64,000 nucleotides of DNA from Longimicrobiales bacterium (GTDB lineage Bacteria; Gemmatimonadota; Gemmatimonadetes; Longimicrobiales; Gaopeijiaceae): positions 160,001 to 224,000 of the forward strand of contig OZ242008.1 of NCBI GenBank assembly GCA_965204735.1, in the 5' to 3' direction. Numbering within the stretch: position 1 is the first letter of the stretch; each line of letters begins with the position of its first letter. Positions 34,444-63,731 of this stretch are shown one piece after another. The position numbers and the translations under genes were made by a program. Below the pieces are notes generated by a model. That model made no database searches and was not told where the DNA came from. It saw only the letters and a list, made by a program, of their open reading frames with translations.

Positions 34444-35013
34444 ATGTCGGACCTGCCCGAAGTCGAAATCGACTTGGAGCGCCTGCGCGCCAGGGACCAG
34501 GAAGAAGTGACGAAGGTCGTAATGACGTACGGCCCCGTGCTCAAGTCGGTGTTTTGGGGAGTCGCGGTCGATCGGCATGACCTTGCCGACATCGTGAACG
34601 ACTTCTGGATACATATCGTGCCGAGACTGGACCGCTACTCCGGCAAGTCTCCGTTCGGGCCGTGGCTCGTGCGCTGCGCCAAGAACTTCCGCAACTCCAG
34701 GGCGCGCAAGAACAGCGCCTGGGCTGCTCGGACGGCAACCTTCAAGGAGCGCCGGGAGCTGGTGGTCGACGGTTCGGCCCTCGACGAGGAAGTCCAGCGG
34801 CAGTTGCTGAAGCAAGCCGTCTTCAAGGCAGTGGACGAGCTGCCGGGGCTGGAGGGCCAGGCGGTGACGCTGACGATGCTGGAGGGCCGGAGCAAGGCGG
34901 ACGCCGCGAAGATGCTGAACGTCAGCCAGGCGACGGTTGCGAACTTGGTGCGACGGGGGCTGTTCAAGCTGCAGGAGAACGAGCTTCTCCAAAGCTTTCA
35001 CGACGACATGTAG
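34444..35013 (+). CDS. ECF-type RNA polymerase sigma factor
   Basis: Region 2 (DLADIVNDFWIHI..YSGKSPFGPWL..CAKN) and region 4 (AVDELP..AAKMLNVSQATV..RGLFKL). Confidence 0.8.
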   Translation: MSDLPEVEIDLERLRARDQEEVTKVVMTYGPVLKSVFWGVAVDRHDLADIVNDFWIHIVPRLDRYSGKSPFGPWLVRCAKNFRNSRARKNSAWAARTATFKERRELVVDGSALDEEVQRQLLKQAVFKAVDELPGLEGQAVTLTMLEGRSKADAAKMLNVSQATVANLVRRGLFKLQENELLQSFHDDM

Positions 35014-35019
35014 GGACCC

Positions 35020-35754
35020 ATGCCGCCGCCGTTGCTCGCCCTGTCCGCCAGTTCGAGGTTGCGCCGGAAGCTCCGCATGGTCGCCGAGGCCGGCCCGGTG
35101 TCGCCGATCGTCGGACCCGTCGCCTTTGCTCGCAGCTGGAGCGGGCTGGCCGAGCTTGCCGCAGCTCACCCCGCGTCGCCGACGGTCGTCGATGCCGCGT
35201 TCCCCGAGGGTTCGCCCCCGCCGTCCACATTCGCGACGGCGCCGGGGATCGGTGGGAGCGACTCGCTTGGCGTCATTCGGCACGCCGTTCTTGGGGCCAT
35301 CGATCCCGAACGACCTCGTCGCTTGCTGGCCCGGATCCGCGAGCAAGGCGCCACCGAAGCCTGCCGGATCATGGACCACGTGCTGACCCGGTCCTTCGGT
35401 CCGTGCACGGTACCGGACTTGGCGGCGAGCCTGGGGCTGTCCCACTGGTCGCTGCTCCGCCGTTGCGCCGCCCTCGGCATTCCCACGCCCAAGAAGCTGA
35501 CCGACCTGGGACGCGTCTACACCGTCGAGCGACTGGCCGAGTGGAGCGAGCAACCGTCGGGCGTCGCGGCAACGGCCGTGGGGTACCCGGAGCCCGCCAA
35601 CTACCGACGAACGGCTCGCCGTGCCCTGGGCGAGCCGCCGACGGCGATCCGTCGCAGCGGCGGCGCCGCCTACGTGGGCCGCGTCATTCTGCGGAGGCTG
35701 GCGCCGCCGCCGACAGGTCCCGTCGGCCTCGCGCAACACGGCGCCAAAAACTGA
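35020..35754 (+). CDS. AraC-like HTH transcriptional regulator
   Basis: TVPDLAASLGLSHWSLLRRC..GIPTPKKL; ATAVGYPEPANYRR second HTH; homologous to the C-half of 62230-63633. Confidence 0.75.
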   Translation: MPPPLLALSASSRLRRKLRMVAEAGPVSPIVGPVAFARSWSGLAELAAAHPASPTVVDAAFPEGSPPPSTFATAPGIGGSDSLGVIRHAVLGAIDPERPRRLLARIREQGATEACRIMDHVLTRSFGPCTVPDLAASLGLSHWSLLRRCAALGIPTPKKLTDLGRVYTVERLAEWSEQPSGVAATAVGYPEPANYRRTARRALGEPPTAIRRSGGAAYVGRVILRRLAPPPTGPVGLAQHGAKN

Positions 35755-35794
35755 CCTGCATGTTCAGGGTTTCGAGAGCGTTCAACAGGTACGC
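35743..35794 (+). promoter_or_regulatory. Class A promoter-like motif GCCAAAAACTGACCTGCAT-N16-GCGTTCA-N4-GTACGC
   Basis: Same blocks at identical spacing at 42274-42325; lies directly upstream of a propeller operon. Confidence 0.7.
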
Positions 35795-35827
35795 ACAGCG
35801 GTCTCACATCCAACTGGGGGTGGCAGG

Positions 35828-36883
35828 ATGAAGGTGCGGCGCGTGTTCGCCCAAGTGGTCGCTACCACCACCTTGGCAAGTTGTGGCAGCGATCCGGTCC
35901 CGTATCGGCCCTTGTTCTCGTTGGCGGACACGGTCTCCAGAGTGAAGTCGGCCGCGGTCTTCGACACGCTGTGGGCGTTCGGTGGCCCGGACGACACGCT
36001 TCTCGCCTTGCCGGCAATGCCCCGTCCCGATGGTTCCGGCGGGGTGGTCTTCGTCGACGTGCAGAGCATGAAGGTTCATCGCATCGGGGGCGAGGGGACG
36101 TTGCTGTGGTCGTGGGGCCGCAAGGGCGAAGGCCCAGGCGAGATCAAGAACGTTCGGGCCATGGACGTTCGCGACGACGGCTCCGTGGTTCTCGTCGACT
36201 CGGGGAACCGGCGGATCGTGACGCTGGACTCTGGCGGCAAGCAGATCGGCGAAACGGGCTTTTTCGGGAGGACGGTGCACTCCGTGGCGTCTCTCTTGGA
36301 GGACAAGCTCGCAGTCCACTCGACCAGCCCGTTGTGGGGCGTCTTGGAGGGCGGCAAAGTGCAGGAAGCGGAGTCTCCTCCTGGAACGGGTCCCTCTCCG
36401 TCGGTGGTGCAGCACCAAGGCCACGTCGTGAGGTGGCGAGGGGACAAGTGGGTGTTCGGCTACGGAGTGGGGAACGGCTGGATGGTCTTTGCCGATGACG
36501 CGCTTGTCGGCGTGCATCCATATGTGGAGCACACGGAGGTCCCGGCAGTGCGGGAGGCAGACCGGGTGCGCCGGACCTCTGGCTTCGTCTCCCGGCCTGT
36601 GACGTCCGGCCGTTCCCTTGCAGTGATCGGCGACACTCTGCATGTGCTTTTCGGCGGCGTCAAGGGCCTGGCTGGCCACAAGATCGACAGATACAACCTT
36701 CGGACGGGCGAGTACTTGAACACCGATCTGCTGCCGCACTACGCAAACCGAGCGGCCATGGCCGAAGGAAGAGTGGTCACCGTCTATTCGGCGGGTCTGT
36801 TCCCGCGTATCGTGGCGCTGGCGCGCAGGTCCCCTGACGACGTAGAAGCTGGTGTCAGCCTCGACAAAGGAGTTGAAAGATGA
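35828..36883 (+). CDS. 6-bladed beta-propeller lipoprotein
   Basis: Lipobox LASC; WGRKGEGPGEI motif. Confidence 0.8.
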   Translation: MKVRRVFAQVVATTTLASCGSDPVPYRPLFSLADTVSRVKSAAVFDTLWAFGGPDDTLLALPAMPRPDGSGGVVFVDVQSMKVHRIGGEGTLLWSWGRKGEGPGEIKNVRAMDVRDDGSVVLVDSGNRRIVTLDSGGKQIGETGFFGRTVHSVASLLEDKLAVHSTSPLWGVLEGGKVQEAESPPGTGPSPSVVQHQGHVVRWRGDKWVFGYGVGNGWMVFADDALVGVHPYVEHTEVPAVREADRVRRTSGFVSRPVTSGRSLAVIGDTLHVLFGGVKGLAGHKIDRYNLRTGEYLNTDLLPHYANRAAMAEGRVVTVYSAGLFPRIVALARRSPDDVEAGVSLDKGVER

Positions 36884-38073
36884 TCAAGCCGGTTCGCTTG
36901 ATCTCCGTCTCGCGCCTGCTGGCGCGCACGGTGGCCGCTGCCCTGCTGCTGAGCTTCCTCGCTTGTTCCGACGCCCCGGGCGCGCACGACGCAGTCGCGA
37001 ACGACGGCTCCCGCCCCTGGGCTTCGCGGGATTCCTGGCTGGAGGCTCGGCTTGAGGCCGTTTCAGACGCAAGCCTGAACCTGGGCGAGGTCTTGGGCTT
37101 GGCAGTCGGGCATCAGGACATGGTCTACGTGCTGGACGCACTTAGTCCAGGCGTGGTCGTCTTGGACTCGCTTCTGTCGCCGGTCACGACGGTCGGCCGA
37201 CGAGGCGAAGGACCCGGCGAGTTCATGTTCATCCGCAACGTCCAGGTCCTGCCCGGAGACAGCCTGATGGTGTTCGACGGACAGCTGAAGCGCGTCACCG
37301 TCTTGTCAGAAGCGCCGGAAGCGCCGGAAGCGCAGTACGACTCGATGCGCTTCGCGGTGGTGCCCGCCGACGTCTCGCAACTCTGGAGAATGCTCGGACC
37401 CGTTGGGAACTACTTGGCCTACGACCGGCGAACGTTCTACGCAGGTGACATTCCAGAGGCAGACGCAGCACGCAACGACGTGTTCTTCGTCCTCGGCGAC
37501 GACGGCCTGACCAAGCGGCATGATTCCGTTCTGGTTGCCCCATCGTTGGAGACCTTGGTCGCGCGGAGTTCCGGGGCCGTGGCGCTCGGCCGGCACCCGT
37601 ACGGCCGCGAAGGATTCGTGGGAATGCTGACCAACGGGGGCTTCGCATACGTCAACTCGGACGCACTGTCGGTTGCGATCTTCGACGACGAAGGGCAACA
37701 AACCCGGTCGTTCTCGTATCCTACCGTCCCGTTGCCGGTGTCGTCCCAGGACCTTGCTGCCGAACTCGACAAGCTTCGACCGGCCCTTGCGAGAGTGCTG
37801 AGGGAAGGGGCTCCCTACACGCGGCCTCCGTTGGTTGGCATGGTCGTGGACGACCAGGATCGGATCTGGCTGGGGCTGCGCGGACCTGCCGAAGAGATGC
37901 CATGGGAATGGGCCGCGTTCGAGCTCGACGGTCGCCATGTGGGCTCGGTGCGCCTGCCTGCCGGTCTCTTGCTTCGCGCAGCCACAGGGGGCAAGCTGCT
38001 GGGAGTGGCCGTCGACGACCTCGAGGTGCCGAGGATTCACCTCTATCGGACCGTTGGGACGGCCGCATCATGA
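36880..38073 (+). CDS. 6-bladed beta-propeller lipoprotein
   Basis: Lipobox FLAC; VGRRGEGPGEF motif; DDLEVPRIHLY C-terminus. Confidence 0.8.
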   Translation: MIKPVRLISVSRLLARTVAAALLLSFLACSDAPGAHDAVANDGSRPWASRDSWLEARLEAVSDASLNLGEVLGLAVGHQDMVYVLDALSPGVVVLDSLLSPVTTVGRRGEGPGEFMFIRNVQVLPGDSLMVFDGQLKRVTVLSEAPEAPEAQYDSMRFAVVPADVSQLWRMLGPVGNYLAYDRRTFYAGDIPEADAARNDVFFVLGDDGLTKRHDSVLVAPSLETLVARSSGAVALGRHPYGREGFVGMLTNGGFAYVNSDALSVAIFDDEGQQTRSFSYPTVPLPVSSQDLAAELDKLRPALARVLREGAPYTRPPLVGMVVDDQDRIWLGLRGPAEEMPWEWAAFELDGRHVGSVRLPAGLLLRAATGGKLLGVAVDDLEVPRIHLYRTVGTAAS

Positions 38074-38131
38074 GGGCAGGCGTGGCTCGAAACGGCGACT
38101 CCGGCCAGCGGCGGCCGCCTGCTGTCGTGTG

Positions 38132-39298
38132 ATGGCGGACCTTCCCCCGTCCAGTGCGGTCGAGGGCCGATTCCCGGCCATGACGGGCCGCATCTTCGGC
38201 AAGCTGGCCGCGCTCTTTTCGCTGTACGCAGGATGGCTCCTTTTCGACGACCTCGATGGCGTGCCCTATCTGGAGCGCCTCGTCATGATCGGCGGCATCG
38301 CCTCGTTTGCCCTGGCGCTGCTGGTGGCTCCTGCCGTCTTTGCGGCCGGCAGCGAGTTCGACGTCTTCGGCGAAAGGGGGCCAGGAGAACGGCGACGCGG
38401 CTGGCGGTGGCTCGGTCTGGCGGCCCTCGGGGCTTGCCTAATGGCCGAGACGGGAGTTCCCCTGTCGGAGTACCTGCTCGACGTTGTCGCCCCGAACCGA
38501 ACACGCGGGGTGCCGGAACCGGGAGTCAGGTACTACAACCGCCTCCTGGTGCCAATCGCAGTGGGGATCTTCATCGTGACCTCGGGCGTGGCCGGTGCCG
38601 TGGTCCACTGCATGACTCGGGACTCGAGTCCGGGCCGCCGCAGTCTGGTGCGGTTTCTGACGTGCGTGGGCTTGGTCGCGTTGTTCTGGGCGTCTCTCCT
38701 GATCTGCAGCGAGCTGGTGAGGTCCACCACCACTATGCCCGTCGTCCTGATCGTCCTTGGCCCGCAGCTGATCCCCCTCCTGCTGACGTGGCGCCTTGTG
38801 CGCTCCCAGGGCTACGGCGTCCTCGAAGTCGTCGGGTTGGACAGAAGGATGGACCGTTGGCTGGACGCCGATGCCGTGGACCGACTTGTGCATGCCGTAA
38901 GCCGACAGGACGCGCCGAACGCCCCCGTCGTCGAAGATGTAGCGCGGAACCGGACCGAAGCGGAAGCCGCTCGGTTCATGCTGGCAATGAGGCGCGCAGC
39001 GGCCCCTGCGATCCGGGTGAGTGAAGCGGAAGCGCGGGCGACCGCAGCTCGCGCCCTGGCGGCGGCGCCGGCTCAAGCTGCAACATCAGGCGCCACGAGT
39101 CTCCGGCGGCTCGTCTCGGGTCGGGTCGGCGATTTCGGCGTGTCGTGGGCATCCCTGTCGGCAGGGTTGGTTCTCTTCGGCCTCATGGCTGCCGTGCCCC
39201 CCAACGCCTTGGCGGCTCTGACCGTGGCGTTGATCGGGACCGCAGTCCAGACTCGTTGGCTCCGGCCTGCTCGCGCAACCGCGCCGACACCGGCCTGA
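38132..39298 (+). CDS. Multi-pass membrane protein of unknown function
   Basis: About 8 hydrophobic segments; co-oriented in the operon; start 38132 or 38180. Confidence 0.65.
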   Translation: MADLPPSSAVEGRFPAMTGRIFGKLAALFSLYAGWLLFDDLDGVPYLERLVMIGGIASFALALLVAPAVFAAGSEFDVFGERGPGERRRGWRWLGLAALGACLMAETGVPLSEYLLDVVAPNRTRGVPEPGVRYYNRLLVPIAVGIFIVTSGVAGAVVHCMTRDSSPGRRSLVRFLTCVGLVALFWASLLICSELVRSTTTMPVVLIVLGPQLIPLLLTWRLVRSQGYGVLEVVGLDRRMDRWLDADAVDRLVHAVSRQDAPNAPVVEDVARNRTEAEAARFMLAMRRAAAPAIRVSEAEARATAARALAAAPAQAATSGATSLRRLVSGRVGDFGVSWASLSAGLVLFGLMAAVPPNALAALTVALIGTAVQTRWLRPARATAPTPA

Positions 39299-39305: not shown

Positions 39306-40514
39306 ATGAACGACACGTTTTCCAAGACCGTCGCCGGGGTGCTGGTCGCCTGCGCGCTGGTGGTTGCGGTTGCCGTCGTGCGGCAAGCCTTCTGGACGCC
39401 TGCGCCGCCCCCGCCTCCCAGCAGCGAGCCCCGCACGGAGAACGGCGAGTACGTGCAACGGACTTCGGCCGCCGGCGAGTCGCGATCGTGGGCAACGGGC
39501 CCTTGGCTGGAGCTCGACTCGAAGAACACGAGAACGGCGACCGGTTACGGCCTGGACGACTTCGACAACGTCGCGCTCGACTTGAAGGGCCGAGCGCATG
39601 TGGTGGATCGATCCAGCAAGAAGGTCGTCGTGTTCGATCCCGACTTGCAGTTCATCCACGCCGTCGCCCTCTCCCCCGCCGACCAGGAGATCGGAATCGA
39701 CATGCTGGGGACGGACAGCATCGCAGTCCTCGATTGGCGAACAGGACTGGCGTCGGTCAGGTCCACCAGAACTGGTGAAGTGGCATCCCACTTTCTTGTC
39801 TCCGGCGCCGGAACCTACTACCCCTACGCGATATGGGCCTTTGGGCAAGGCGCCGGCTTCCTGACGGCCTACACAAGCTCCTACACCCCCGACAACGCGT
39901 TGCAGAAGAACCGGCAAAACTTCATTCGCCTCTTCGACCGCGGCGGAGGCGTTGCCCGCGATTCGGTGTTCCTGTTTCCGGCCACGGAGAAGCTGGTTGC
40001 TGGAGCCGGGCTCGGCGTTTCGGTCGGCCCGCACCCCTTCGGCGCCACCTCCTACGTGCGCGTCCTGGCGGGCACGACGGTGGTCCAGGCGTCCTCGGAC
40101 CGCTTTGCCGTCAGCCTCGTAGACGTCGAGGAGGACGCGGCCACCTCCTTCTCGTACCCCACGGATCCGGCGTGGGTGTCCGACGCTGAGCTGACGGCCG
40201 CCGCGGCTCGGGAGTCGGAGGAGCGCGCCGCCGCTCTGCTCGCCGAAGGGCGTCGCGCCCGCCAAGTGCTGGCCGGGCTCGCAGTGGACAACCTGCGCAG
40301 CACAATCTGGGTAGGCGTCTGGGCGCCGCCCGGGTCCGACAGGGAGTGGGCCGCCTTCGACACGTCGGGCACGCATCTGGCTTCGGTTGCCCTGCCCGCC
40401 GCCTTTGTCCTGCACAGCGTAGTGGATGGCCGCTTGGTTGGCATCGACTACTCCGAAGGCAAGCGTGCTCCGGCGCTCCAATCGTTTCGAGTGCTTCGCG
40501 ACGACGAGCCCTGA
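39306..40514 (+). CDS. 6-bladed beta-propeller-like protein with N-terminal membrane anchor
   Basis: Alignable with 36880-38073 (DSV....E.LVA...HP(F/Y)G, SFSYPT.P..VS, EWAAF...G.H..SV.LPA). Confidence 0.75.
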   Translation: MNDTFSKTVAGVLVACALVVAVAVVRQAFWTPAPPPPPSSEPRTENGEYVQRTSAAGESRSWATGPWLELDSKNTRTATGYGLDDFDNVALDLKGRAHVVDRSSKKVVVFDPDLQFIHAVALSPADQEIGIDMLGTDSIAVLDWRTGLASVRSTRTGEVASHFLVSGAGTYYPYAIWAFGQGAGFLTAYTSSYTPDNALQKNRQNFIRLFDRGGGVARDSVFLFPATEKLVAGAGLGVSVGPHPFGATSYVRVLAGTTVVQASSDRFAVSLVDVEEDAATSFSYPTDPAWVSDAELTAAAARESEERAAALLAEGRRARQVLAGLAVDNLRSTIWVGVWAPPGSDREWAAFDTSGTHLASVALPAAFVLHSVVDGRLVGIDYSEGKRAPALQSFRVLRDDEP

Positions 40515-40540: not shown

Positions 40541-40568
40541 CTTTCCCGTCGCTTCCGTCAAAGCTGTT
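40541..40568 (+). repeat. 28-bp direct repeat, right copy (island boundary)
   Basis: CTTTCCCGTCGCTTCCGTCAAAGCTGTT. Confidence 0.85.
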
Positions 40569-42182: not shown

Positions 42183-42273
42183 CAGCCTCCGCTCCATGGG
42201 GGACAGCTCCATCGCCCACAGGGTCGCGGGCCGCCGAAAAGCGCCTGTCCGGGGAGGGCCGGGTCCGGGATCT

Positions 42274-42325
42274 GCCAAAAACTGACCTGCATTTTCGAGG
42301 GGCTGGGGGCGTTCAGAAAGTACGC
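42274..42325 (+). promoter_or_regulatory. Class A promoter-like motif, second copy
   Basis: GCCAAAAACTGACCTGCAT-N16-GCGTTCA-N4-GTACGC, followed by AAGGAGG RBS and ATG 42360. Confidence 0.7.
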
Positions 42326-42359
42326 GGCGGCTTCCACGCCCAATCGCAAGGAGGATCGA

Positions 42360-43403
42360 ATGAGCCGCTTTGTCCGGAAGGACCGGGCCAAGGCCCTGGT
42401 CGCAGTCGTCCGTACGTTGCTCGTGGGCCTGTTGTTGGGCCCAGCCGCGGCCTTGGACGCTCAGCGCCAATGGTTGCCGCCCCCCGTGGAAGTTGTTGCG
42501 TGGGAGGATGTCGACGGGAATGTCCTTGGGGGGCGTCCGCTGCAGATCGAGGGCAGTCCGCGAGGAGGGTTGGTCGTGGCCGACTGGGGAGACTTCTCCA
42601 TTCGCGAGTTGTCTGCTTCCGGCGAACTCGTCTGGAAGTTCGGACGAAGCGGCCCGGGACCTGGCGAGTTTCTCGCCATTCTGGACTTGCACTTTGCCGA
42701 CGACGGAAACCTGCACGTCCTCGACCCACGGAATCGCCGGGTGACGGTCGTCAGCGCGACAGGCGATCTTGTCGAGAGTGTGCCCGTCCCGGGTGGGGAG
42801 CCGGCAGCGCTGTTGCCCGCGTCCTTCGACCCCGGGTACTTCGCCGTCGTGCCGCACACCAACAAGAAGGACACCTTGTGGAGGTCGTTCTCAAAAACCG
42901 GCGTTCGGCATCGGACCGTGCTCATGCCGTCGGAAGTGGCGTTCGATCATGACTTGGCAGGCGAGGGTTGGGCCGCGGAGATACCGGGCGGTCGCGCGGT
43001 AGTCTTTTTTCGATGGTCCAGCCGGATGATCATCTTGGACGCCGACGGCAATGCAAGCGTTGTTGCGGACGGAATAGAGGCGATCCCTTTTCCCGAACTC
43101 GTCGCAGTCGAACGATCGGGGCCCGGCTGGACCGTTAGTGGATTCAAGGTCGATCCCAAAGCCGTGAAGGCAGCGCGGGGAGCGACGGCCACTGCGTCCC
43201 GCATCTTTGTGCTGTACTTGGGAACCACTGGCCATGCAGGGCGTGTGGTGGACACCTATTCGACGCATGACGGCGAGTACCTTGGATCCTACCTGTTCCC
43301 ACGCAGCGTGGACGCGATTGCCGTTCTCGCAGACGGTCGGCTTGCGACTCTTGAGAACCGACTGGTTCCGACCCTTCGCCTGTGGGACCTGTCTGTCGAC
43401 TAA
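42360..43403 (+). CDS. 6-bladed beta-propeller protein, secreted (orphan)
   Basis: Signal peptide ..AALDA; FGRSGPGPGEF; resembles 35828-36883 (D.Y....GEYL). Confidence 0.8.
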   Translation: MSRFVRKDRAKALVAVVRTLLVGLLLGPAAALDAQRQWLPPPVEVVAWEDVDGNVLGGRPLQIEGSPRGGLVVADWGDFSIRELSASGELVWKFGRSGPGPGEFLAILDLHFADDGNLHVLDPRNRRVTVVSATGDLVESVPVPGGEPAALLPASFDPGYFAVVPHTNKKDTLWRSFSKTGVRHRTVLMPSEVAFDHDLAGEGWAAEIPGGRAVVFFRWSSRMIILDADGNASVVADGIEAIPFPELVAVERSGPGWTVSGFKVDPKAVKAARGATATASRIFVLYLGTTGHAGRVVDTYSTHDGEYLGSYLFPRSVDAIAVLADGRLATLENRLVPTLRLWDLSVD

Positions 43404-55124: not shown

Positions 55125-55361
55125 GGAGCGGCGCGCAGGCCTCTGCGGGCGGTGTGCCAATTTTGATATACCACGGGAGCGGCTTGCGGCGTCTCCATAT
55201 ATGTCGGCAGGAACCGACAGGCTCACGGGGGAGGACTCGCACCTTCCCGGAATTCAGAATCTCTACCAGGAGACAGCAGCATGACTTACCTCCGCAAGCT
55301 CGCCCGGCTCTTCCGTCGCGCCGTCGCGACGGTCGCCTTCGGCCAGGGCACTCCCCAGTCG
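54115..55361 (+). repeat. Left anchor repeat, copy 1 (TPR 3' end + class B promoter + MTYLRK leader)
   Basis: Near-identical to about 57355-58467. Confidence 0.9.
55154..55198 (+). promoter_or_regulatory. Class B promoter-like motif GTGCCAATTYTGATATACCACG-N10-GCGGCGTCTCCAT
   Basis: Also at 58255-58299 and, independently, at 63687-63731 with the same spacing. Confidence 0.7.
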
Positions 55362-55817
55362 GTCACGCTGAAGAGCAGGGTGGCCACGACATTCCCGACT
55401 CCGACAAACCGCTCCAACTCCCCCAGGTCACGGGTCAGAACCTTCCGGCACGGTCGTGGGCAAGACCCCGGATCACTCTGGGACAAGACCGGGCAAAGCC
55501 GCTGCTACATGGCCAACACCGGAGTCAGCGTTCTCGTAGCTGGGCTGGCATTCCTGCAACTTGGTTGTGACGCGACATCGCCGTCGCACGATTCACAACC
55601 GATAGTTGTCGAAGCCCGACCGGCTGTAACCGAGCGCGGAACACTACAGGTTCGGCTGACCAGCAGCAGAAACGCCGTTGCCGGTGTTCCAGTCGTTCTT
55701 CGCGTCTACGACCTGGCAGGAAACGTCGTGGACGAACGGAAGTTTGCTTCTCTGCAGGACGTCGCGGCAGGCGCCGTATTCACGGACGACAGCACTGAGA
55801 CGGAGGGCGAACGATGA
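55281..55817 (+). CDS. Hypothetical lipoprotein-like protein with MTYLRK leader
   Basis: GGAG RBS; internal lipobox-like VLVAGLAFLQLGC; ATGA overlap with the next gene; alternative start at 55509. Confidence 0.55.
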   Translation: MTYLRKLARLFRRAVATVAFGQGTPQSVTLKSRVATTFPTPTNRSNSPRSRVRTFRHGRGQDPGSLWDKTGQSRCYMANTGVSVLVAGLAFLQLGCDATSPSHDSQPIVVEARPAVTERGTLQVRLTSSRNAVAGVPVVLRVYDLAGNVVDERKFASLQDVAAGAVFTDDSTETEGER

Positions 55818-56407
55818 AGCCATGGGCCAGGGCCGTATCCGCCGTTCTGTTGATCACTACGGCAACCCTCCCCGCATCGTTGGTCGCTGTAGAATCCGCT
55901 TCCCTCAATCGTCCTCTGGACGTAACTGTCGAGCTGTCGGCTCTGGAATGCCGCGCAGACGGCAACGTTGTCTTCAGCGCAACAGGCTCCTCTGGAGGCT
56001 TCGCGGCCGAAGCGGTTCGTGACGCCATCCCTTCCTGCGAGGTGGACTGGACGGCGGCCGTAACGGGTTGTACGACGTGCTTCACATCCGTCATGTTCCT
56101 CGTGGGCGGCGCATGGGCTGTTCGAGCTGCACACTTGGGCATGAGGCTCGCCATTGCCATGACCAGAGGCCAAGCCCGGGCAGCGATGTTCGCTGCCGGG
56201 TTCACCTTCGCTGGCGTCTTGTCCCAGCTCTTGCCTGGATGTCGCGGGTGCTTTTCTGCAACGTGCGTGCGTGAGTTGGCTCGAGGCGTGATGGAGGCGA
56301 TTGAGCAGTTGTTCACGTCTCCCCTCTGGTCGTGCGCGAACGCGGACGTCAATGCCGAGTTGGAGTGCCTGATTGGGATCAACGACGATGGCGAGATCGA
56401 ATACTAG
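55814..56407 (+). CDS. Secreted Cys-rich (9 Cys) hydrophobic hairpin protein, bacteriocin-like candidate
   Basis: Signal peptide; GCTTCF...hydrophobic core...GCRGCF. Confidence 0.65.
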   Translation: MKPWARAVSAVLLITTATLPASLVAVESASLNRPLDVTVELSALECRADGNVVFSATGSSGGFAAEAVRDAIPSCEVDWTAAVTGCTTCFTSVMFLVGGAWAVRAAHLGMRLAIAMTRGQARAAMFAAGFTFAGVLSQLLPGCRGCFSATCVRELARGVMEAIEQLFTSPLWSCANADVNAELECLIGINDDGEIEY

Positions 56408-56627
56408 CACTGGCACCGTCGAGAAGGTCGCTAGGTATCGGCGCCGAGCTCGATGCGCGGTGATCGTTGCGGTAGCGATGGCGACGGTGGGACCGGTCGT
56501 GGACCCGTCCCTGGAAGCGATAGTGTCGGCGGTGACGGCGTGGGCCGCCGGCACTATCATCTGGCTGATCGCGGACATCTCCAAGGCGGTCGTTGACTGC
56601 GCCGACGGGCAGGACTGCGAGGACTAG
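56388..56627 (+). CDS. Small 2-TM protein (immunity-like candidate)
   Basis: Two hydrophobic segments; overlaps the end of the Cys-rich gene. Confidence 0.5.
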   Translation: MARSNTSTGTVEKVARYRRRARCAVIVAVAMATVGPVVDPSLEAIVSAVTAWAAGTIIWLIADISKAVVDCADGQDCED

Positions 56628-56710
56628 GTTGGCAACCGCCAAATGGGAAGTGGACGGGACCACCGTCACGGAAAAATGGCTCGAATGCTTTGAACCGGAG
56701 TGGTAGAGAA

Positions 56711-57271
56711 ATGATGAAGCTACTTGAGCGTCAAGTCCCGCTCTGGCTGATCTTGGTCTGCTTCGTCACCATGGCGACGACACTCGTGGTGGCGGCTTGG
56801 TTGTCTTCACGACCGGCCGACGAACCGACCGTCGTGAACGTCGTGGACGTCGTCTGGACGGACGGACGGCTGGAGATGCCCAACCCGGAAGCGTTCACGG
56901 AAGGGCACGACGGCCCTGTCGCTTTTCGCATCATTGAGGACGGAGAGGTCGTCATGGAGTTCGCAGGGGCGAACTTGGCGGAAGCACGCCAGAAGCTCGA
57001 GCAAGCATCCATGGAATACCTCGAGGAGATGGCCGGCCGACCGGATGCGTCTCAGGCGCTGCGGGCTCTTGTAGAGCTGAGAGAAAGCCTCCCGTCCGAT
57101 TCTTCCATCAGGCTTATGACGGCCGACCAACTGACTCGTTTGCTGGAGACGATGGAACCGCTGTTGGCGGCTGGTTATGCCGACATGCCGGCGGAGGAGC
57201 AGGCCAAGGTGCTCTCGGGCGTGAAGGAAGCCGTGAACGCCGTGAAGTCGGAGGTGGCGAAGGACTCCTGA
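56711..57271 (+). CDS. Membrane-anchored hypothetical protein (DEPTVV family, paralog of 58387-59061)
   Basis: SRPADEPTVV..DVVW..DGPV..ESLP...I.LMT..TRLLE..EPLLAA. Confidence 0.75.
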   Translation: MMKLLERQVPLWLILVCFVTMATTLVVAAWLSSRPADEPTVVNVVDVVWTDGRLEMPNPEAFTEGHDGPVAFRIIEDGEVVMEFAGANLAEARQKLEQASMEYLEEMAGRPDASQALRALVELRESLPSDSSIRLMTADQLTRLLETMEPLLAAGYADMPAEEQAKVLSGVKEAVNAVKSEVAKDS

Positions 57272-57354: not shown

Positions 57355-58225
57355 GCGCCCCTGCCGCCCCACCCGCCCTCGCGGTCCAGGCAATGCCTTC
57401 GGCCCAGGGCGGCCCTCTCGGCCCAAAGCCACCCTCGCCGCCCCGACCGAGGCCGCCGCCCTTGGCGAGCGCCACGCCCTTGCCAAGCTCATGGCGCCTG
57501 AACGCCTGGGTCCTGGGCACGGCCGCCTCGCCGGACCGGGCGGTCGTCCCGGCGGCCACCGCAGTGCCCTGACCGTCCTGACCGGCGATCCCGACATCGA
57601 CGTCCGCGCGGTCGCCGCGGCTGCGCTTCACGCCACCCACGACGACGACCACCCGGCCCTTCGCCCCCTCCTAGCCGCGCCAGCGGCCCCTCCGTCCTCG
57701 GCCCCCTCTCCGCTGCCCTCCACCGCAACGAGCGCGGCAACTCCGCCCGACCGATCCGGAGGTGCTGATCGGCCTCGCCGCAGGGCTGGCGGCGGCCGGC
57801 AACCATGCCCAGGCCGTGGGAGTCTACAGGACGCCCTTGGCCTCGATCCCGACCACCCGGTCGCCCTGGTCAACCTCGGGCTGGGCCTCGAGGCCCTGGG
57901 CCGCGACGCCGAAGCCGAGGCCGCCTACGATCGGGCCGCGACGGCAAGACCGAGCGAGGCTCTGGCGCACTTCAACCTGGGCAACGCCCGCTTCCGCCGC
58001 GGCGACCTGCTGGGCGCGGGCGTCGCGTACCGGGCCGCCGTCGAATCCGATCCGGGCTTGGCCCGCGCCCACTTCTACCTCGCCGTCGTCCTCGTCAACG
58101 GCGGCGGCGATCTGGAGGAAGCCCTTTCGGCCCTCTACAGCGCCGCCGAGTTCGCCCCCGACGACGAAGAGGTCCGTCGCGTTCTCCAGCAGGTGGAAGC
58201 GGCGGTGAACAGGCCGGGCGGCTAA
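57355..58225 (+). pseudogene. Degraded duplicate of the 3' part of the multiheme-TPR gene
   Basis: Near-identical to 54115-55124 with deletions and frameshifts (e.g. gtctacagg vs gtctaccagg). Confidence 0.9.
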
Positions 58226-58254: not shown

Positions 58255-58299
58255 GTGCCAATTTTGATATACCACGGGAGCGGCTTGCGGCGTCTCCAT
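58255..58299 (+). promoter_or_regulatory. Class B promoter-like motif, copy 2
   Basis: Identical to 55154-55198 (part of the duplication). Confidence 0.65.
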
Positions 58300-58386
58300 A
58301 TATGTCGGCAGGAACCGACAGGCTCGCGTCGCGAGGAGGCTCGCACCCTTCCCGGAATTCAGAATCCTCTACCAGGAGACAGCAGC

Positions 58387-59061
58387 ATGACTTACCTTCG
58401 CAAGCTCGCCCGGCTCTTCCGTCGCGCCGTCGCGACGGTCGCCTTCGGCCAGGGCGCTCCCCAGTCGCAAGTCCGGCCGAACCAAGCCCCGGTCCGCCGC
58501 GGCTTCTCCCACCGCGGCCTCGCCCTGGTGCCGCTGCTCAGGTTCAGGCATGGACTGACGGTGGGCGTCATAGCGATCGCGATGTCCGCCAGCGGCTGCA
58601 CGGACGCGTTTTCGCGGCCGGTCGATGAGCCGACCGTCGTTGACGTCGTCTGGAGGAACGGCCGTGTGGAACTCGCCGATCCAGAAGTCGCGCTGGAGCG
58701 GCCCGACGGCCCTGTCAGGGTTCGCTTCATCAAGGACGACGAGGTAGTCAAGGAATACGCCGCCGGAAGCTTGGCGCAGGCACGGGCGGAAATGGAGCGT
58801 GACGTCCGGAACAAGTGGAAGGATATGGCCAGGCGCCCGGGCGCATTGCCCGAAACCAGGGCGTGGGCAGAGCTGATGGAGAGCCTCCCTACCGAGTCTG
58901 CCATCATGCTCATGACGGACGAAGAACGGACGCGCCTGTTGGAGGCGGTGGAGCCGTTGCTGGCGGCTAGTCGCCGCGACATGAGGGCGGAGGAGCGTGC
59001 CAGGATGCTGTCCGACGTTAGAGAAACCGTGAACGCCTTGATGTCGGAGGTGGCAAAATGA
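58387..59061 (+). CDS. Lipoprotein-like DEPTVV family protein with MTYLRK leader
   Basis: Same first 23 aa as 55281; lipobox-like ASGC; body paralogous to 56711-57271. Confidence 0.7.
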   Translation: MTYLRKLARLFRRAVATVAFGQGAPQSQVRPNQAPVRRGFSHRGLALVPLLRFRHGLTVGVIAIAMSASGCTDAFSRPVDEPTVVDVVWRNGRVELADPEVALERPDGPVRVRFIKDDEVVKEYAAGSLAQARAEMERDVRNKWKDMARRPGALPETRAWAELMESLPTESAIMLMTDEERTRLLEAVEPLLAASRRDMRAEERARMLSDVRETVNALMSEVAK

Positions 59062-59534
59062 TGATGGCACGTGGCTTGGTCTTCATCCTTCTCCTCCTCG
59101 GCGCGGCCTTCGCTGCCGAGCCAGCGGAAGCCGCCGTAGCCCCGGACGCCGAAGTCACTTCGGTCAACACCTGTCCGATCCCCCAACGCAACTGCTCGAG
59201 GTCGGAGGCATGGGAAATGGGCATCAACTGCGGGGCATGCTTCGTCGAAGTGTTCCTGTGCCCGTTCGCGATCGGGGCCGTCTACATAGCTCCGGACCCT
59301 GCGTCAAAAGCGGCTGCGATCCTTGCCGCGCTCATCACGTGTCTGGGTCCATTCCAGTCGTGCACGCAGTGTGTCAGGGCGGCCCACCGCTGCGGCGACG
59401 AAGCCAAGGAGCGGGCGGCGCGAGAGCACCTGCGGGCGACCATGGAACGCATTCGTCGTCTGGAGGAGATGCTGATCCCAGGCAATGGTAACGAGTGCGA
59501 AGAGAGCGCTCCTGATTGCCATACTCCCCACTGA
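59058..59534 (+). CDS. Secreted Cys-rich (11 Cys) hairpin protein, bacteriocin-like candidate
   Basis: Signal peptide (..GAAFA/AEA); CxxC-x6-C...C-x6-CxxC; ATGA overlap; GGAGG RBS. Confidence 0.7.
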   Translation: MMMARGLVFILLLLGAAFAAEPAEAAVAPDAEVTSVNTCPIPQRNCSRSEAWEMGINCGACFVEVFLCPFAIGAVYIAPDPASKAAAILAALITCLGPFQSCTQCVRAAHRCGDEAKERAAREHLRATMERIRRLEEMLIPGNGNECEESAPDCHTPH

Positions 59535-59548
59535 GCGGAGAGGCTAAC

Positions 59549-59794
59549 GTGATAAACTTTCTGGTCACTTTTGGCCGATGGTGGCTTGGGTTTGGATGCG
59601 GCTGGTGTTTCGCCATGACCTACGGCCCCTGGACGGTCTTGGTCGCTGTTCCAATGACGGTGTTGGTAGTGTGCACCGCGTTGTGGTTCTGCGGCTTTCG
59701 CGGGGCCGTGTTTGCCCTCTTCGGGGGCGATACGCCGACGCTTGTTCGTCCGGTTCCGGCCTGGCTCCTGCGAATCGCCCCATGGCTCCGATAG
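59549..59794 (+). CDS. Small Trp-rich 2-TM protein (immunity-like candidate)
   Basis: GGAGAGG RBS, GTG start, hydrophobic 81 aa. Confidence 0.6.
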   Translation: MINFLVTFGRWWLGFGCGWCFAMTYGPWTVLVAVPMTVLVVCTALWFCGFRGAVFALFGGDTPTLVRPVPAWLLRIAPWLR

Positions 59795-59804
59795 GTCCCG
59801 GCCC

Positions 59805-60980
59805 GTGAGTCGCGACTGTCCAGGTCCGTGCGTCGGTTTCGTGCCGATCTGGGCAGTCGCGACCATCGCAGCAACCCTGCTCGCTTCTTCCGCAGAGGCC
59901 CAATGGCGGCTGGGTCCGCCGGACTTGGTGATCGGCGAGGAAGCAGGGACGCTGTTCGACGACATAGCGGATGTGTTCGTCCGCGACGCTCGCATCTACG
60001 TGACGGACCGAGGCGCCCGCACGATTCGAGCGTTCGCTCGGGCGACCGGGCGCTTGGTCGCAACGGCGGGGCGTGAAGGCGAGGGCCCTGGCGAGTTTCG
60101 GTTTGTGGGCTGGGTAGACGACTGCGGTACCGACGCAATCGTCGCGTCGGACCACGGCTTGGACCGTGTGTCCGTCTTTACCCTGGATCTGGACCATGTT
60201 CGGACGTTCGCTCTGGGCGCCACGCGACTCGCTGCGATCCAGTGCGTTGGTTCGCGCGGATTCGTAGGAATCAAACGAAACCCCGATCCCCTGCTCCACC
60301 TTCGGGGGGAAATCCCAATGGAGCCGTACGTCGGTACGGTCGATCTCGTCCTGTTGGGGCCAGACGGTTCCCTCCAGCGGACGATCGGAAGATTCCCTGC
60401 TGAAGACCGATTCCGTGTGGCCATGCCCGACGGCCGGGGCTACAGCATACTCCCCCTCGTGTGGGGTCTGCGGCCGGTCTTCGAGTCCTTCCAGCAGGGG
60501 TTTGTCTTCGGAACAGGAGACTCGTGGTCGCTGGCCCGCTACGACGCGGAGGGCAACGTCTTGGACACGCTGGCGCTGGACCAGAGCCGTCTCGCCGTTG
60601 CGCGTGCCCATGTCGACGAGCATGCCCGGCGAGCGGTCGCGGCCAGCCGCAACCCCGAACGCGATCGACGGTTCTACGCGGACTACCCGTTCCCTTCCCA
60701 CTTCCCCGCATACACCGATGTCGTCGCGTCGAAGAGCGGCTTCACCTGGGTAGAACAGTTCTCCGCACCTTACCCGGAAGCTGACCCTCACTGGAAGGTC
60801 TTCGCACCCGACCGCGCCTTGGCGGCTACTGCGGACTTGCCGAGAGGCTTCGAACTCATGTGGGTTGGGGACACGCAAGTCGCGGGAGTCGTGAGAGACG
60901 AACTGGGCGTCCAGAGCATGGAGCTGCGCCCCATCGTGCGCGTGGCGGAAAACGACCTATCGGCTCGAAGGAAGCCGTGA
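59805..60980 (+). CDS. 6-bladed beta-propeller protein, secreted
   Basis: Signal ..SAEA; AGREGEGPGEF; PL.WG..PV and RDELGVQ motifs resemble 300-1469; start uncertain. Confidence 0.8.
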   Translation: MSRDCPGPCVGFVPIWAVATIAATLLASSAEAQWRLGPPDLVIGEEAGTLFDDIADVFVRDARIYVTDRGARTIRAFARATGRLVATAGREGEGPGEFRFVGWVDDCGTDAIVASDHGLDRVSVFTLDLDHVRTFALGATRLAAIQCVGSRGFVGIKRNPDPLLHLRGEIPMEPYVGTVDLVLLGPDGSLQRTIGRFPAEDRFRVAMPDGRGYSILPLVWGLRPVFESFQQGFVFGTGDSWSLARYDAEGNVLDTLALDQSRLAVARAHVDEHARRAVAASRNPERDRRFYADYPFPSHFPAYTDVVASKSGFTWVEQFSAPYPEADPHWKVFAPDRALAATADLPRGFELMWVGDTQVAGVVRDELGVQSMELRPIVRVAENDLSARRKP

Positions 60981-61086
60981 ACGCCGTGAAGTCGGAGGCG
61001 GCGAAGGACTCCTGACTCCGGGCCGAGGGACCGGCCGGCGAGCAGGCGGTCGCGCTTCCGAGGGCTGGTCCAGTTCGTTTCCACGC
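60967..61086 (+). repeat. Right anchor repeat, copy 2 (relic of DEPTVV gene end EAVNAVKSEAAKDS*)
   Basis: Near-identical to 57223-57345. Confidence 0.9.
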
Positions 61087-61111
61087 GCCGAAGCAGTAGA
61101 TTGCAGGTGCC

Positions 61112-61588
61112 ATGACCCGAATCCGCGTCGCCGTCGCCCTGGTACCGCTCCTGTGCGGGGCGTGCCACGCCTACGCGCCGGCGTCTCCTTCCGCCGTCGG
61201 ACCCGGCGACCAGGTCCGCGCCCTCCTCACCGCCGAGCAGCTCGACCGCTTCCGGGGGGTGCTGCCGACCGACGCCCGGAGCGTGGAAGGCACAGTGCTC
61301 GAAGCGGTCCCGGGCGAGCTGCTGCTGGAAGTCCCCCTTCTCGTCCAAGCCGAAGGGCTGCGCGTCGAGTCGCTCCGGCAGCGGCTTCGCATCCCCGAGA
61401 CGGGATTGGCCGACTTGGAGTTCCGCACCCTCGCCCGGGGCCGAACCTGGGCCCTGGCCGGCGCTGCTGCCGCGCTGGTGGGGTACGTGACCTGGGACCA
61501 ATGGTTCTCCGACGCCAAGCGCGACCCCCAAGTGCTGCCCGGCCCGGTCAACGAGTTCTGGCGGGTCGTGGTCCCGGTTCCGCCGTGA
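61112..61588 (+). CDS. Hypothetical lipoprotein
   Basis: LCGAC lipobox-like motif; C-terminal TM helix. Confidence 0.65.
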   Translation: MTRIRVAVALVPLLCGACHAYAPASPSAVGPGDQVRALLTAEQLDRFRGVLPTDARSVEGTVLEAVPGELLLEVPLLVQAEGLRVESLRQRLRIPETGLADLEFRTLARGRTWALAGAAAALVGYVTWDQWFSDAKRDPQVLPGPVNEFWRVVVPVPP

Positions 61589-62010
61589 CCTCCATGCATC
61601 CGGCCGCAAGGCGCGCCGGCAGAACCCCGTCGCCCGTGGTCGGCCTGCCCCTGGGCGCCTTTCCGGCCCTGCTGGCGTTGATGGCGGCCGCCGTCGCGAC
61701 CGCCTGCGACGAGGACCCCATCGGCTCGCCCCTCTCGATTGAGCTGGCGGGTCCCGGCGCCGGCGTCGTCGGCGAAGAGCTGGCGGTGCAGTACCAAGTG
61801 CGCGGCCGCCAGCTCCTGGGCGTCGTCTTCACCTGGGGCGACGGCGCCGCCGACACCCTCGCCACCGAGGGCGCCCAGAGCGCCGCCGGCACGCGACGCC
61901 ACACCTACCGCTCTGCTGGCGTCTACACCGTCCAGGCCCGGGCCCAGGACGCGGTGGAAGGCGTCGCGACCGCCGAAGCGTCGATTCGGGTGGAGGACGC
62001 CGGTTCCTGA
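61585..62010 (+). CDS. PKD domain lipoprotein
   Basis: ATAC lipobox; FTWGDG..HTYRSAGVYTV. Confidence 0.75.
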   Translation: MTSMHPAARRAGRTPSPVVGLPLGAFPALLALMAAAVATACDEDPIGSPLSIELAGPGAGVVGEELAVQYQVRGRQLLGVVFTWGDGAADTLATEGAQSAAGTRRHTYRSAGVYTVQARAQDAVEGVATAEASIRVEDAGS

Positions 62011-62094
62011 CCGGCGGCGTCTTCGCCGCCCGGCCACGACAGGCGCTCGCCCCGCCATGACAGGCTGAGCACGGCGCGCCACGGGGCCGATCCT

Positions 62095-62146
62095 GGCGGA
62101 AAGTGACCTATCGAGGGAACGGCTCTCCAGCGTTCTCGAAGTGTTC
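62095..62146 (+). promoter_or_regulatory. Degenerate class A motif upstream of the sigma-AraC fusion
   Basis: AAAGTGACCT..GCGTTC with the same 26-nt TGACCT-to-GCGTTC offset as the class A copies. Confidence 0.45.
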
Positions 62147-62229
62147 GCGGGCTGGACCGGAACACGTCCGGGAACCTTTGGCGGTTTGCGGAGTATCACT
62201 GTCAGTAACCGCCAACAGGGGGCCGCCCA

Positions 62230-63633
62230 ATGGACGCTGCTTCGCCAATCGACTCGACCGCCGACACGCCGAAGGCAACCGAGAGACCACCCACGCTCGC
62301 CGAGCTGGAACGCTTCCGAGCCGCCGACCCCGCCCTCCTGCGGGAGTGGCTCGCGGAGGTGGAGCCACGCCTGATCGGGACGATAGCGGGCTGGGCCGCC
62401 GATCCCGCCCACGCGGACGACCTGCTGCAGGAGGTCCAGGTCCGCATCTACCGGCGGCGGGCAGGCTTTTCCGGCTCCGGCACGTTCGCGCGGTGGGCGG
62501 ACAAGGTCTGCCTGAACATCTGTCGCACCGATCAGCGCATGAGGGCGCGCAATCGGGCGGTGCCGATCGACCAGTGCCCGGAGATCGCGGACGACGCGCC
62601 CGGTCCCGCGGAGCAGTTCCAGAGCCGCCTGCGGGCCGCGACGGTTCGCGAGGCCGTCGAACGGCTGGACGAGAGGGAGCGGGAAGCGGTCGTCGCCTGT
62701 CACCTCGAGGAGCTGCCGACGGCCGAGGTCGCCCGAACGATGAAGACGACCGAACAGGTCGTCAGAACCCTGGTCCACCGGGGCTTCCGGAAGCTCAGGA
62801 GCATGGACGACGTGACGGAGTTCATGATCGGCTCCAACAGCCGCGCGCCACAAGCGTCCTCCGTTCTCGCGCTCCAATCGGACTGCCGGCTTCGGACTCG
62901 GTTGCGGACGGGCGTGCGGGCCGGGGCCGTCCACGGCTTGGTGGAAGGCGTCCACTTCGCCTCCGGCTGGAGCGACCTGCGGGAGTTGGCGCTCCGCTTC
63001 AGTGGTTCGCCCGCGTTCGTGGACCCCTCGCATCCCTCGGCGGAGGAACGACGAGACCCAGCGGCGTGGTTGCAGCAGGCGGTGCCGGAGTGTCCTCTGA
63101 TCCGCTACGGGAAGGGCGGCGCCAAGTCGCCGGCCACGGACGCCGAGTTCGTCGCGCGTCTGACGCCCGGCGACAACGACAGCCTCGTGGCGATCGGCAC
63201 TGCGGTGCTTCTGGCCGCCAACTACGACTTGGTGCGCAACCTGCTGGCGAACCTCGGGAAGGTCGCTCCCGTCGAAGCTCGAGAGCTTCTGGGGAGCGTC
63301 GTTCGCCGCACGGTGTTCCCGTGCACGGTCGGGGCACTGGCGACGAGCTGGGGAACCAGCGTGGCGATGGTAGGGCGGCGGTGCCGGGCGTGGGGACTGC
63401 CGAAGCCCAAGAGACTCGTCTTGCTGGCACGCCTCTTTCACGTGCAGAGGCTGGCCGAATGGAGCGGTCGGCCGCCGGGCGCGATCGCCCTCGCCCTGGG
63501 CTACTCGGCCTACTCCAACTACGCGCGGTGCGTGCGAAGGGAGATGGAGTGCACGTCGTCGGAGGTCGCCCAACGCGGCGGAGCGGCCTACGTGGCCGCG
63601 AGACTGATCGACGAGGTTGGGGACTCCCGATGA
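62230..63633 (+). CDS. ECF sigma factor - AraC-like HTH fusion protein
   Basis: ADDLLQEV..FSGSGTFARW..CLN (region 2), EVARTM..VRTLVHRGFRKL (region 4), then TVGALA..GLPKPKRL..ALALGYSAYSNY. Confidence 0.8.
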   Translation: MDAASPIDSTADTPKATERPPTLAELERFRAADPALLREWLAEVEPRLIGTIAGWAADPAHADDLLQEVQVRIYRRRAGFSGSGTFARWADKVCLNICRTDQRMRARNRAVPIDQCPEIADDAPGPAEQFQSRLRAATVREAVERLDEREREAVVACHLEELPTAEVARTMKTTEQVVRTLVHRGFRKLRSMDDVTEFMIGSNSRAPQASSVLALQSDCRLRTRLRTGVRAGAVHGLVEGVHFASGWSDLRELALRFSGSPAFVDPSHPSAEERRDPAAWLQQAVPECPLIRYGKGGAKSPATDAEFVARLTPGDNDSLVAIGTAVLLAANYDLVRNLLANLGKVAPVEARELLGSVVRRTVFPCTVGALATSWGTSVAMVGRRCRAWGLPKPKRLVLLARLFHVQRLAEWSGRPPGAIALALGYSAYSNYARCVRREMECTSSEVAQRGGAAYVAARLIDEVGDSR

Positions 63634-63686
63634 GGCGGTCCAGCGCGAGCCGGTTCGCGCCCCTCGAGATCGAGGAATTCGCAGAG

Positions 63687-63731
63687 GTGCCAATTCTGAT
63701 ATACCACGCAGCGGGCGGGCGGCGTCTCCAT
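63687..63731 (+). promoter_or_regulatory. Class B promoter-like motif, independent copy
   Basis: GTGCCAATTCTGATATACCACG-N10-GCGGCGTCTCCAT; the flanks are unrelated to 55154. Confidence 0.7.

Follow-up and report, generated by a model that had tools for sequence, protein, structure and literature searches.

What does an AraC-like DNA-binding protein contribute when it is encoded beside, or even fused to, an extracytoplasmic function (ECF) sigma factor? The question is raised by a stretch of 64,000 nucleotides (the window; C1:160001-224000) from the one-contig genome of a Longimicrobiales bacterium (G000; 4.14 Mb, 69% GC), in which an ECF sigma gene and an AraC-like gene form a pair at 34444-35754 and the same two domains are joined in one protein at 62230-63633. 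An earlier note on this DNA had drawn attention to both, and to bipartite motifs of two classes, A and B, and had proposed an ECF type whose promoters need a dedicated AraC-like partner. Co-occurrence, gene trees, held-out motifs and a contrast with sister sigmas that lack AraC lend this proposal strong comparative support, although its strict form, one pair for one promoter class, is weakened by the relative G003. The reading that we favor from these sequence comparisons, with a probability of roughly 0.68, is that the AraC-like protein binds the upstream box of the promoter and positions its cognate ECF sigma in a class II-like mode of activation.

First, are the proteins what they appear to be? 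The class A pair consists of a sigma of 189 aa (34444-35013, forward strand, as are all window genes and promoters below) and a partner of 244 aa (35020-35754), in which a shortened receiver-like alpha/beta domain precedes a domain with two helix-turn-helix (HTH) motifs; the fused protein of 467 aa (62230-63633) runs from sigma through receiver-like domain to AraC HTH domain, and is split into two genes in the relatives G002 and G003. Pfam Sigma70_r2 and Sigma70_r4_2 match both the class A sigma and the N-terminal half of the fusion, the ECF architecture of sigma2 and sigma4 domains without sigma3 or sigma1, and TIGR02937 scores 62.9 and 76.9 bits (cut-off 42.9), with no NCBIfam subfamily cut-off reached by either sigma. 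HTH_18 matches the partner (34.8 bits; cut-off 33.6) and the C-terminal half of the fusion (33.4 bits, just below), and these two AraC-like halves are 38% identical (E 9e-38). An AlphaFold 2 model of the class A partner (pLDDT 92) shows both HTHs and the alpha/beta N-terminal domain; Foldseek finds weak matches to the DNA-binding domains of AdpA and SoxS and to response regulators, none at E ≤ 0.001, the best being the AdpA DNA-binding domain (TM-score 0.69 by target length, E 0.07). Across 27 aligned proteins, the Asp of beta3 in the receiver-like domain (D58) is nearly invariant, while the acidic pair after beta1 and the conserved Lys that would complete a response-regulator signature were not found, and the Pfam scan returned no Response_reg match for the AraC-like proteins. 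The fusion is genuine. Assembly error was considered as its cause and ruled out by three further fused clusters in relatives at 80-81% identity, by the G000 gene itself, in which the stop and start codons that delimit the two genes in G002 and G003 are both missing, and by contigs from two runs of two studies, which span the gene with no listed indel inside it. The sigma and AraC-like domains, paired and fused, are thus present where the earlier note had placed them.

Second, how constant is this partnership? G000 holds five sigma/AraC-like pairs, which together with 30 loci from relatives (10 from an initial search and 20 of the 22 strongest further places) made up a first set of 35 loci; in 32 of them the AraC-like gene has a sigma no more than 4.1 kb away, the others being L088, L095 and a 3.9-kb contig. 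A fresh set of 24 further loci, unused in building any matrix and many of them from close kin, shows a family sigma within 6 kb in 20. By comparison, stand-alone distant AraC homologues have an ECF gene nearby in 1 of 21 loci (1.5-kb flanks; one of the 21, L075, is from the unpublished G192), and strong AraC-like homologues turned up in the window's own bacterial family only, where 11 of 201 genomes have them at E ≤ 1e-30. The sigma and AraC trees agree, the identities of the two proteins covary (Mantel r 0.59, 19 loci), and the AraC tree has fused forms at three positions, one of them a deep clade and the others inside the class B clade and, as a single instance, inside the class A clade. In the fourth G000 pair (C1:3440613-3442286, reverse strand) the sigma, whole in G003, appears frameshifted, whether by a real change or by assembly error; L033 (G002:C1:327264-328267), an orthologue of the fifth pair, has had its AraC HTH region deleted; and the database protein P0067 joins sigma2 to HTH2 by a different deletion. 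P0067 was taken as a deletion product, and not as a functional architecture in its own right, given its near-identity to the L033 sigma in sigma2.

Third, what might the pairs act on? All five motif copies listed by the earlier note, at 35743, 42274, 55154, 58255 and 63687, read exactly as it described them; the start GCCAA..TGA that it gave to both classes is one base off, and in the register of the GA dinucleotide classes A and B share the consensus TGNCNNAWWYYGAY at about -50 to -37, followed by a GCRTY -10 element. The class A promoter behind the pair spans 35742-35795 (upstream box 35742-35756, -10 GCGTTC at 35778-35783, predicted start near 35791), and a second, at 42273-42326, has a syntenic copy in G003. 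Class B promoters lie at 55154-55205, at 58255-58306 and, behind the fused gene and before a secreted open reading frame (ORF) starting at 63795, at 63687-63738; the first two, counted separately by the earlier note, are both real but sit in one near-identical duplication of about 750 bp and amount to one occurrence. These blocks are rare: the 19-nt class A block, with up to three mismatches, is found in only two places of the 4.14-Mb genome, both in the window, and the class B block, with up to four, in four places, three in the window and one at C1:4089905, with a fifth class B site at C1:4088630. Position weight matrices (PWMs) of the blocks give the real sites, training sites included, 31.6-50.9 bits against a reversed-genome best of 21.6 (A) and 23.1 (B). 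A further family promoter upstream of the fused gene (62094-62140; 31.9 bits, second best in the genome) was not listed by the earlier note and belongs to a third class, seen in the surroundings of the pair at C1:4013-4016 kb; at this position, before its orthologue of the fused gene, G003 carries a class A-type site. The two promoter classes give way to one family with at least five variants in G000. Two sites sit apart from this picture: a third-class upstream box without a -10 at 60943-60962, inside the 3' end of a propeller gene, may be a relic of how the cassette arose, or a chance resemblance within coding sequence, and the class B sites at C1:4088630 (reverse) and C1:4089905 (forward) are divergent, 1.3 kb apart and far from any pair, flanking methyltransferase-like and ribosomal-protein-like ORFs, with one of them preceding a lipoprotein-like ORF.

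In the relatives, the DNA 3' of the sigma/AraC stop codons contains the same type of site in most loci. A PWM from nine G000 sites, one of which was trained with a mis-anchored -10, finds a hit of 13 bits or more no further than 400 nt from a pair gene in 20 of the 30 other loci, compared with 10 of 144 background windows. The iterated matrix reads TGNCNNAWWYYGAYM, a variable stretch, then GCRTY 35-37 nt from the start, and the general PWM scores at least 20 bits in 21 of the 24 fresh loci and never in 286,658 reversed bases. Near stand-alone distant homologues no family motif was seen (best 14.3 bits, 21 short loci). The resulting layout is TGNC-N6-YGAY at about -50 to -37, a variable -35, and the GCRTY -10. 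The GAY sub-box has G in 49 of 49 distinct sites and A in 48; the two conserved sub-boxes are about 10 bp apart and the box ends just before the -35 position, so that all 49 present an asymmetric two-box site abutting -35, the geometry of a class II AraC-type site, to which an AraC-type protein would be predicted to bind. Held-out class A-like sites adjoin class A orthologues in G002 and G280, class B sites adjoin class B orthologues in G002 and G003, and G002 has just two class B cores, both no more than 9 kb from its own class B orthologue. Classes A and B are thus variants, specific to subclades, of a single promoter family.

Could these motifs mark where mobile cassettes insert or recombine, and not be promoters at all? 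Copies of a 28-bp direct repeat (left copy 34228-34255, right copy 40541-40568) frame the class A island, which is missing at the syntenic place in G003, where one repeat copy stands, and the two class B copies arose by duplication. The bounding repeat, however, differs in sequence from the motifs, and the sites behave as promoters would: they are oriented, 65-150 nt upstream of ribosome-binding sites (RBSs) and start codons, keep a fixed bipartite spacing with a free spacer, and in 17 of 37 cases have a TA[G/C] step at a distance of 12-15 nt downstream of the -10, all of which makes a recombination signal barely credible. Of the 39 sites having a -10, 26 are followed by an RBS and an ORF whose N-terminus is hydrophobic, compared with 69 of 2000 random positions; 11 of 50 sites were excluded from this count for want of a -10 and are probably coding look-alikes or remnants.

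The most telling comparison comes from sister sigmas that have no AraC partner. A search of 301 genomes with the membrane protein encoded at 38180-39298 found a split form of its homologue, with one part on either side of a same-family sigma in 13 of 13 loci fetched, the second part forming the N-terminus of the +1 protein (a helical segment, two transmembrane (TM) helices and a beta-propeller). Within the 5-8 kb fetched around these 13 loci there is no AraC gene and no family site; ten genomes with such a module have no family-level AraC at all (best 41 bits, HTH only), and other genomes carry both types. Upstream of the AraC-less modules, 13 of 13 have CGCAAC-N16-GCRTC, that is, a canonical AAC -35 with no upstream box (box scores -17 to -31) and the same -10 as class B; among AraC-paired sites, AAC stands at -35 in 1 of 37. 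The proteins mirror the DNA. In RpoE, R171, S172, F175 and R176 read the -35 element (PMC1540707), and the equivalent residues, by an alignment made in this analysis, are all kept in 13 of 13 AraC-less sigmas versus 2 of 29 paired sigmas, so that canonical -35-reading residues together with an AAC element characterize the AraC-less sisters and not the paired sigmas. A Leu at the R173 position was tried as a mark of AraC dependence and dropped, since the AraC-less sisters have Leu too. In L142-L155 the AraC-less spacer plus -10 (GCCGATTYGGCATCC) resembles a class B-type upstream block (TCCGATTCGGACATACC), a likeness that hints that the box may have arisen by local duplication, and may also be due to chance.

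Since the -10 is common to paired and unpaired sigmas, it is likely read by the sigma itself. The same observation bears on the idea that the AraC-like protein works with the housekeeping or another sigma while the linked ECF serves other promoters. Class II activators of the AraC type are known to act with sigma70, and AT-rich bases follow the CGT block at some class B sites, but a conserved TAnnnT is lacking, GCRTY equals the -10 of the AraC-less sisters' own promoters, and the sigma-AraC co-phylogeny is tight; we consider this arrangement very improbable. Alternatively, the AraC-like protein might bind the box to hold its cognate ECF in check, as a repressor or damper that a signal lifts. 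A protein on the box, next to the -35 position, could block sigma4, and the class B clade, having no anti-sigma, is missing a negative regulator. A repressed promoter would be expected to have a strong -35, yet AAC is nearly absent from the paired sites and the residues that would read it are eroded, and several fusions of a repressor to its own sigma would be hard to explain, which leaves repression quite unlikely.

Might the sigma, with the C-terminal domain of the RNA polymerase alpha subunit, instead read the whole motif? The block would then be an UP-like element or a -35 displaced from its usual position, and the AraC-like protein would be a linked regulator with a role of its own. The upstream block covaries with the sigma (r 0.48) nearly as well as with AraC (r 0.54), and given this similarity the reader of the box is not assignable by covariation. 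The class A block is also A-rich at -46 to -42, as a proximal UP subsite is, and some sites persist where the AraC gene is truncated (L033) or absent (G003). Against this, the invariant GA and the G-N-C lie 24-35 nt upstream of the -10, outside the sigma4 footprint; in the alignments sigma4.2 is the most variable part of the sigma and HTH2 the conserved half of the AraC-like protein; and the box is absent exactly where AraC is absent, while fusion of the two proteins has recurred. Reading of the entire motif by the sigma is thus unlikely in our view.

Several observations nevertheless weigh against the favored reading, in which the AraC-like protein reads the box and the sigma the -10, and its support is comparative throughout. 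Many of the relatives are close kin within one genus, and the upstream block's covariation with the sigma has already been mentioned. Of the 29 paired sigmas, 25 still have R176 and 17 still have R171, taken singly, and L100 keeps all four residues despite its AraC box. The AraC-less sigmas form one branch (support 99/98), so that the contrast, clear-cut as it is, amounts to one evolutionary event, and monophyly of the paired sigmas is not rejected (p-AU, from the approximately unbiased test, 0.34), so that the change may have run in either direction. G003 has two class A sites without a class A pair, which weakens a one-pair-one-class rule and may reflect, as far as comparison tells, either recent loss of the pair or cross-reading by a related one; in G002 a site still stands behind the truncated AraC gene of L033. 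The deep fused clade yielded no convincing site near any of its five loci (best scores 6.2-14.3 bits), and pairwise comparison of these loci revealed none either. Lastly, a strict IUPAC pattern run on 201 genomes missed 4 of the 11 AraC-family genomes and matched 40 of the 190 others; as a genome-level test it was dropped for being too noisy and partly circular.

How, then, might the promoter work? ExsA, an AraC-type activator, reads GnC with HTH1 and TGnnA with HTH2 at a site overlapping -35 (PMC12648661), a layout that corresponds to the G-N-C-N6-YGAY of this family and to its two-HTH domain; in the present proteins HTH2 is the conserved half, just as GAY is the invariant half of the box. 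From the shared -10, a box that occurs only with AraC, the ExsA-like geometry and a structural model with both HTHs, we infer class II-like activation for which the partner would be required. The AraC-like protein would sit on the box adjoining the -35 position, its two HTHs contacting the two sub-boxes some 10 bp apart, and would place the cognate sigma-RNA polymerase, which would then open the DNA at the -10 and go on to transcribe secreted-protein genes in small sets. Subclade-specific letters in the box would assign each paralogous pair its own promoter class, and the third-class site at 62094 suggests that pairs may also activate one another. A bolder version, which we would call a coin toss, is that this ECF lineage ceded -35 recognition to a dedicated AraC-like subunit, yielding an obligate two-protein (or fused) sigma whose specificity is set by the helices of the partner, with the paralogous pairs forming an orthogonal yet cross-wired network for islands of secreted propeller and Cys-peptide genes, and the AraC-less sisters providing its natural control.

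The signal input is the least certain step. For class A and related clades it would likely come through the membrane protein 38180-39298, a candidate anti-sigma with a propeller as its sensor; for the class B clade it would likely be transcription from 62094 or 62171, or a ligand of the atypical receiver-like domain. At 62171-62195, upstream of the fused gene, lies an ordinary ECF-type promoter, GGAACC-N16-GTA, likely read by another ECF. GGGAACC-N16-GTA occurs 21 times in the genome versus 0-10 times for nine other spacings, and precedes three of the five pairs and another ECF at C1:69557; such sites may form a separate ECF regulon that feeds the pairs.

The earlier note had seen no obvious anti-sigma gene next to either sigma, and for the fused gene it was right; the class A island, however, has a candidate. 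There, 38180-39298 encodes an LptF/G-like six-helix domain, a helical segment of about 75 aa and two TM helices, with homologues in 39 of 58 AraC-family loci and none in the class B and deep fused clades. Its C-terminal part shares homology with the N-terminal end of the +1 protein of the AraC-less sigmas (HHalign 99.25%), and this segment opens the +1 gene in 13 of 13 AraC-less modules, a helical domain with TM helices encoded right beside an ECF gene. On these grounds the protein is a candidate membrane anti-sigma of the class A pair. It resembles class I anti-sigmas (PMC7406223) in the +1 position within AraC-less modules, the short helical N-terminus, the TM anchor and an outer domain, and departs from them in having two TM helices and, in the AraC-paired form, in being fused behind an LptF/G-like bundle. 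Direct evidence from profiles is weak: an Atlas lead for the segment (0.87) goes to a cluster with zf-HC2 in 20% of its members, and the segment profile ranks the Hx3Cx2C protein of G000 sixth of 36,387 ORFs (E 0.45). This protein occupies the same slot in a G000 outgroup module, and its motif is taken as a zinc-binding anti-sigma signature (PMC7406223). The segment had no profile match in Pfam, the PDB or five ordinary G000 anti-sigma N-termini, the whole membrane protein had no usable ESM Atlas match, and its model, like that of the AraC-like protein, had no Foldseek match at E ≤ 0.001. The N-terminal fold is like LptF/G (LptF Z 13.6, root-mean-square deviation 3.8, 203 residues aligned; next unrelated fold 7.8). 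In 38180-38820 and L156 this six-helix domain comes without the beta-jellyroll, and it is always tied to these ECF modules.

How does this arrangement compare with known systems? Class II AraC activators such as ExsA, Rob/SoxS/MarA and AdpA act with the housekeeping sigma; here, by contrast, the partner is a dedicated, co-inherited ECF, paralogous pairs have their own box letters, and the N-terminal domain is receiver-like rather than cupin or DJ-1. ECF promoters that need activators are also known, as with AlgU and AlgR/AmrZ at PalgD or CarQ and CarD/CarG, but there the activators are general regulators at single promoters that retain a canonical -35, unlike the cognate, inherited or fused AraC partner described here. 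The AdpA consensus TGGCSNGWWY resembles the first ten bases of several sites. The family shares with the ECF (group 4) sigmas of Casas-Pastor et al. 2021 (PMC7826278) the sigma2 and sigma4 domains, a CGT/CAT-type -10, island-linked targets and, in part of the family, a candidate membrane anti-sigma. The modes of ECF control listed in the main text of that classification are anti-sigmas, extensions, kinases, two-component systems and neighboring TetR, LysR, MerR or HTH genes thought to control ECF transcription, a scheme from which the present family differs in that the AraC-like protein co-evolves and fuses with the sigma and its presence goes with loss of -35 reading; the term AraC occurs nowhere in the main text and the available part of the supplement (PMC7826278), and no AraC partner appears in a 2021 review either. 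SigO-RsoA of Bacillus subtilis (PMC8103513) likewise divides promoter recognition between two co-encoded proteins, there by splitting sigma2 from sigma4, here by adding an unrelated DNA-binding partner to a whole ECF. Our literature search found no description of an ECF-AraC pair, though supplements and subscription papers outside it may bear on the point; the parts are of known kinds, and their combination, an ECF with a cognate AraC partner, is not found in the literature searched.

Why this would matter follows from how ECF sigmas are currently understood. Prediction of ECF regulons builds on promoter reading by sigma2 and sigma4 alone (bioRxiv 10.1101/2020.06.23.168245), and the role of activators in sigmaE transcription has been called largely unknown (PMC1540707). 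A family that comes with and without its cognate AraC, split and fused, and with matched promoters makes the question testable with four small genes and a reporter. If the favored reading, activation by the cognate AraC-like protein, is true, it would add a regulatory mode to ECF classification, show a sigma losing -35 reading after an activator takes over, and offer natural orthogonal AND-gates for synthetic biology; the promoter family would also be predicted to mark which uncharacterized secreted peptides and propellers of these bacteria are co-regulated.

Finally, which genes stand behind the promoters? ORFs following family sites encode exported proteins of several kinds, among them propeller-like lipoproteins and small Cys-rich secreted peptides. 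The class A island contains two secreted or lipoprotein beta-propeller-like ORFs (35828-36883 and 36880-38073, identified from sequence, weak NHL-type NCBIfam matches and an iterated profile) and a propeller-like ORF directly behind the candidate anti-sigma (39306-40514), which in the AraC-less relatives is fused to it; outside the island, the second class A promoter precedes an orphan secreted propeller-like ORF (42360-43403). The suggestion that the system controls dispersed propellers in general did not survive, as G000 has 63 propeller-like ORFs and just 10 of them follow a site at a distance of up to 6.5 kb, which implies that the regulons are small. Class B sites do precede the Cys-peptide cassettes, as the earlier note said, except that the first gene is lipoprotein-like and the Cys-rich ORF comes second: cassette 1 (55281-57271) comprises a lipoprotein-like ORF (55281-55817), a Cys-rich secreted ORF (55814-56407) and a membrane-anchored one (56711-57271), and cassette 2 (58387-60980) a lipoprotein-like ORF (58387-59061), a Cys-rich secreted ORF (59058-59534) and a propeller ORF ending at 60980. 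No Pfam or NCBIfam family matches cassette 1 above cut-off, cassette 2 has a DUF5128 match below it (E 8e-4), and neither of the two Cys-rich ORFs has a detected homologue, whether in the rest of G000 or among the loci fetched; an assignment of 59058-59534 to Ssp4 was not accepted (E 0.007, 15.7 bits against a cut-off of 300). In L032, L034, L038, L086 and L087, small secreted Cys-rich peptides of 58-93 aa stand directly behind family promoters; some of these are conserved between genomes, and the one tested had no NCBIfam match. Along with the class B promoter, the duplication copied the TPR tail encoded by the multiheme cytochrome gene 52512-55124, and this copy (57450-58225) is frameshifted. 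Elsewhere in the window, 7432-21129 is an unrelated cluster with an aminotransferase class III fusion, an amidohydrolase, a sulfotransferase, a GPP34-P450 fusion and a penicillin amidase.

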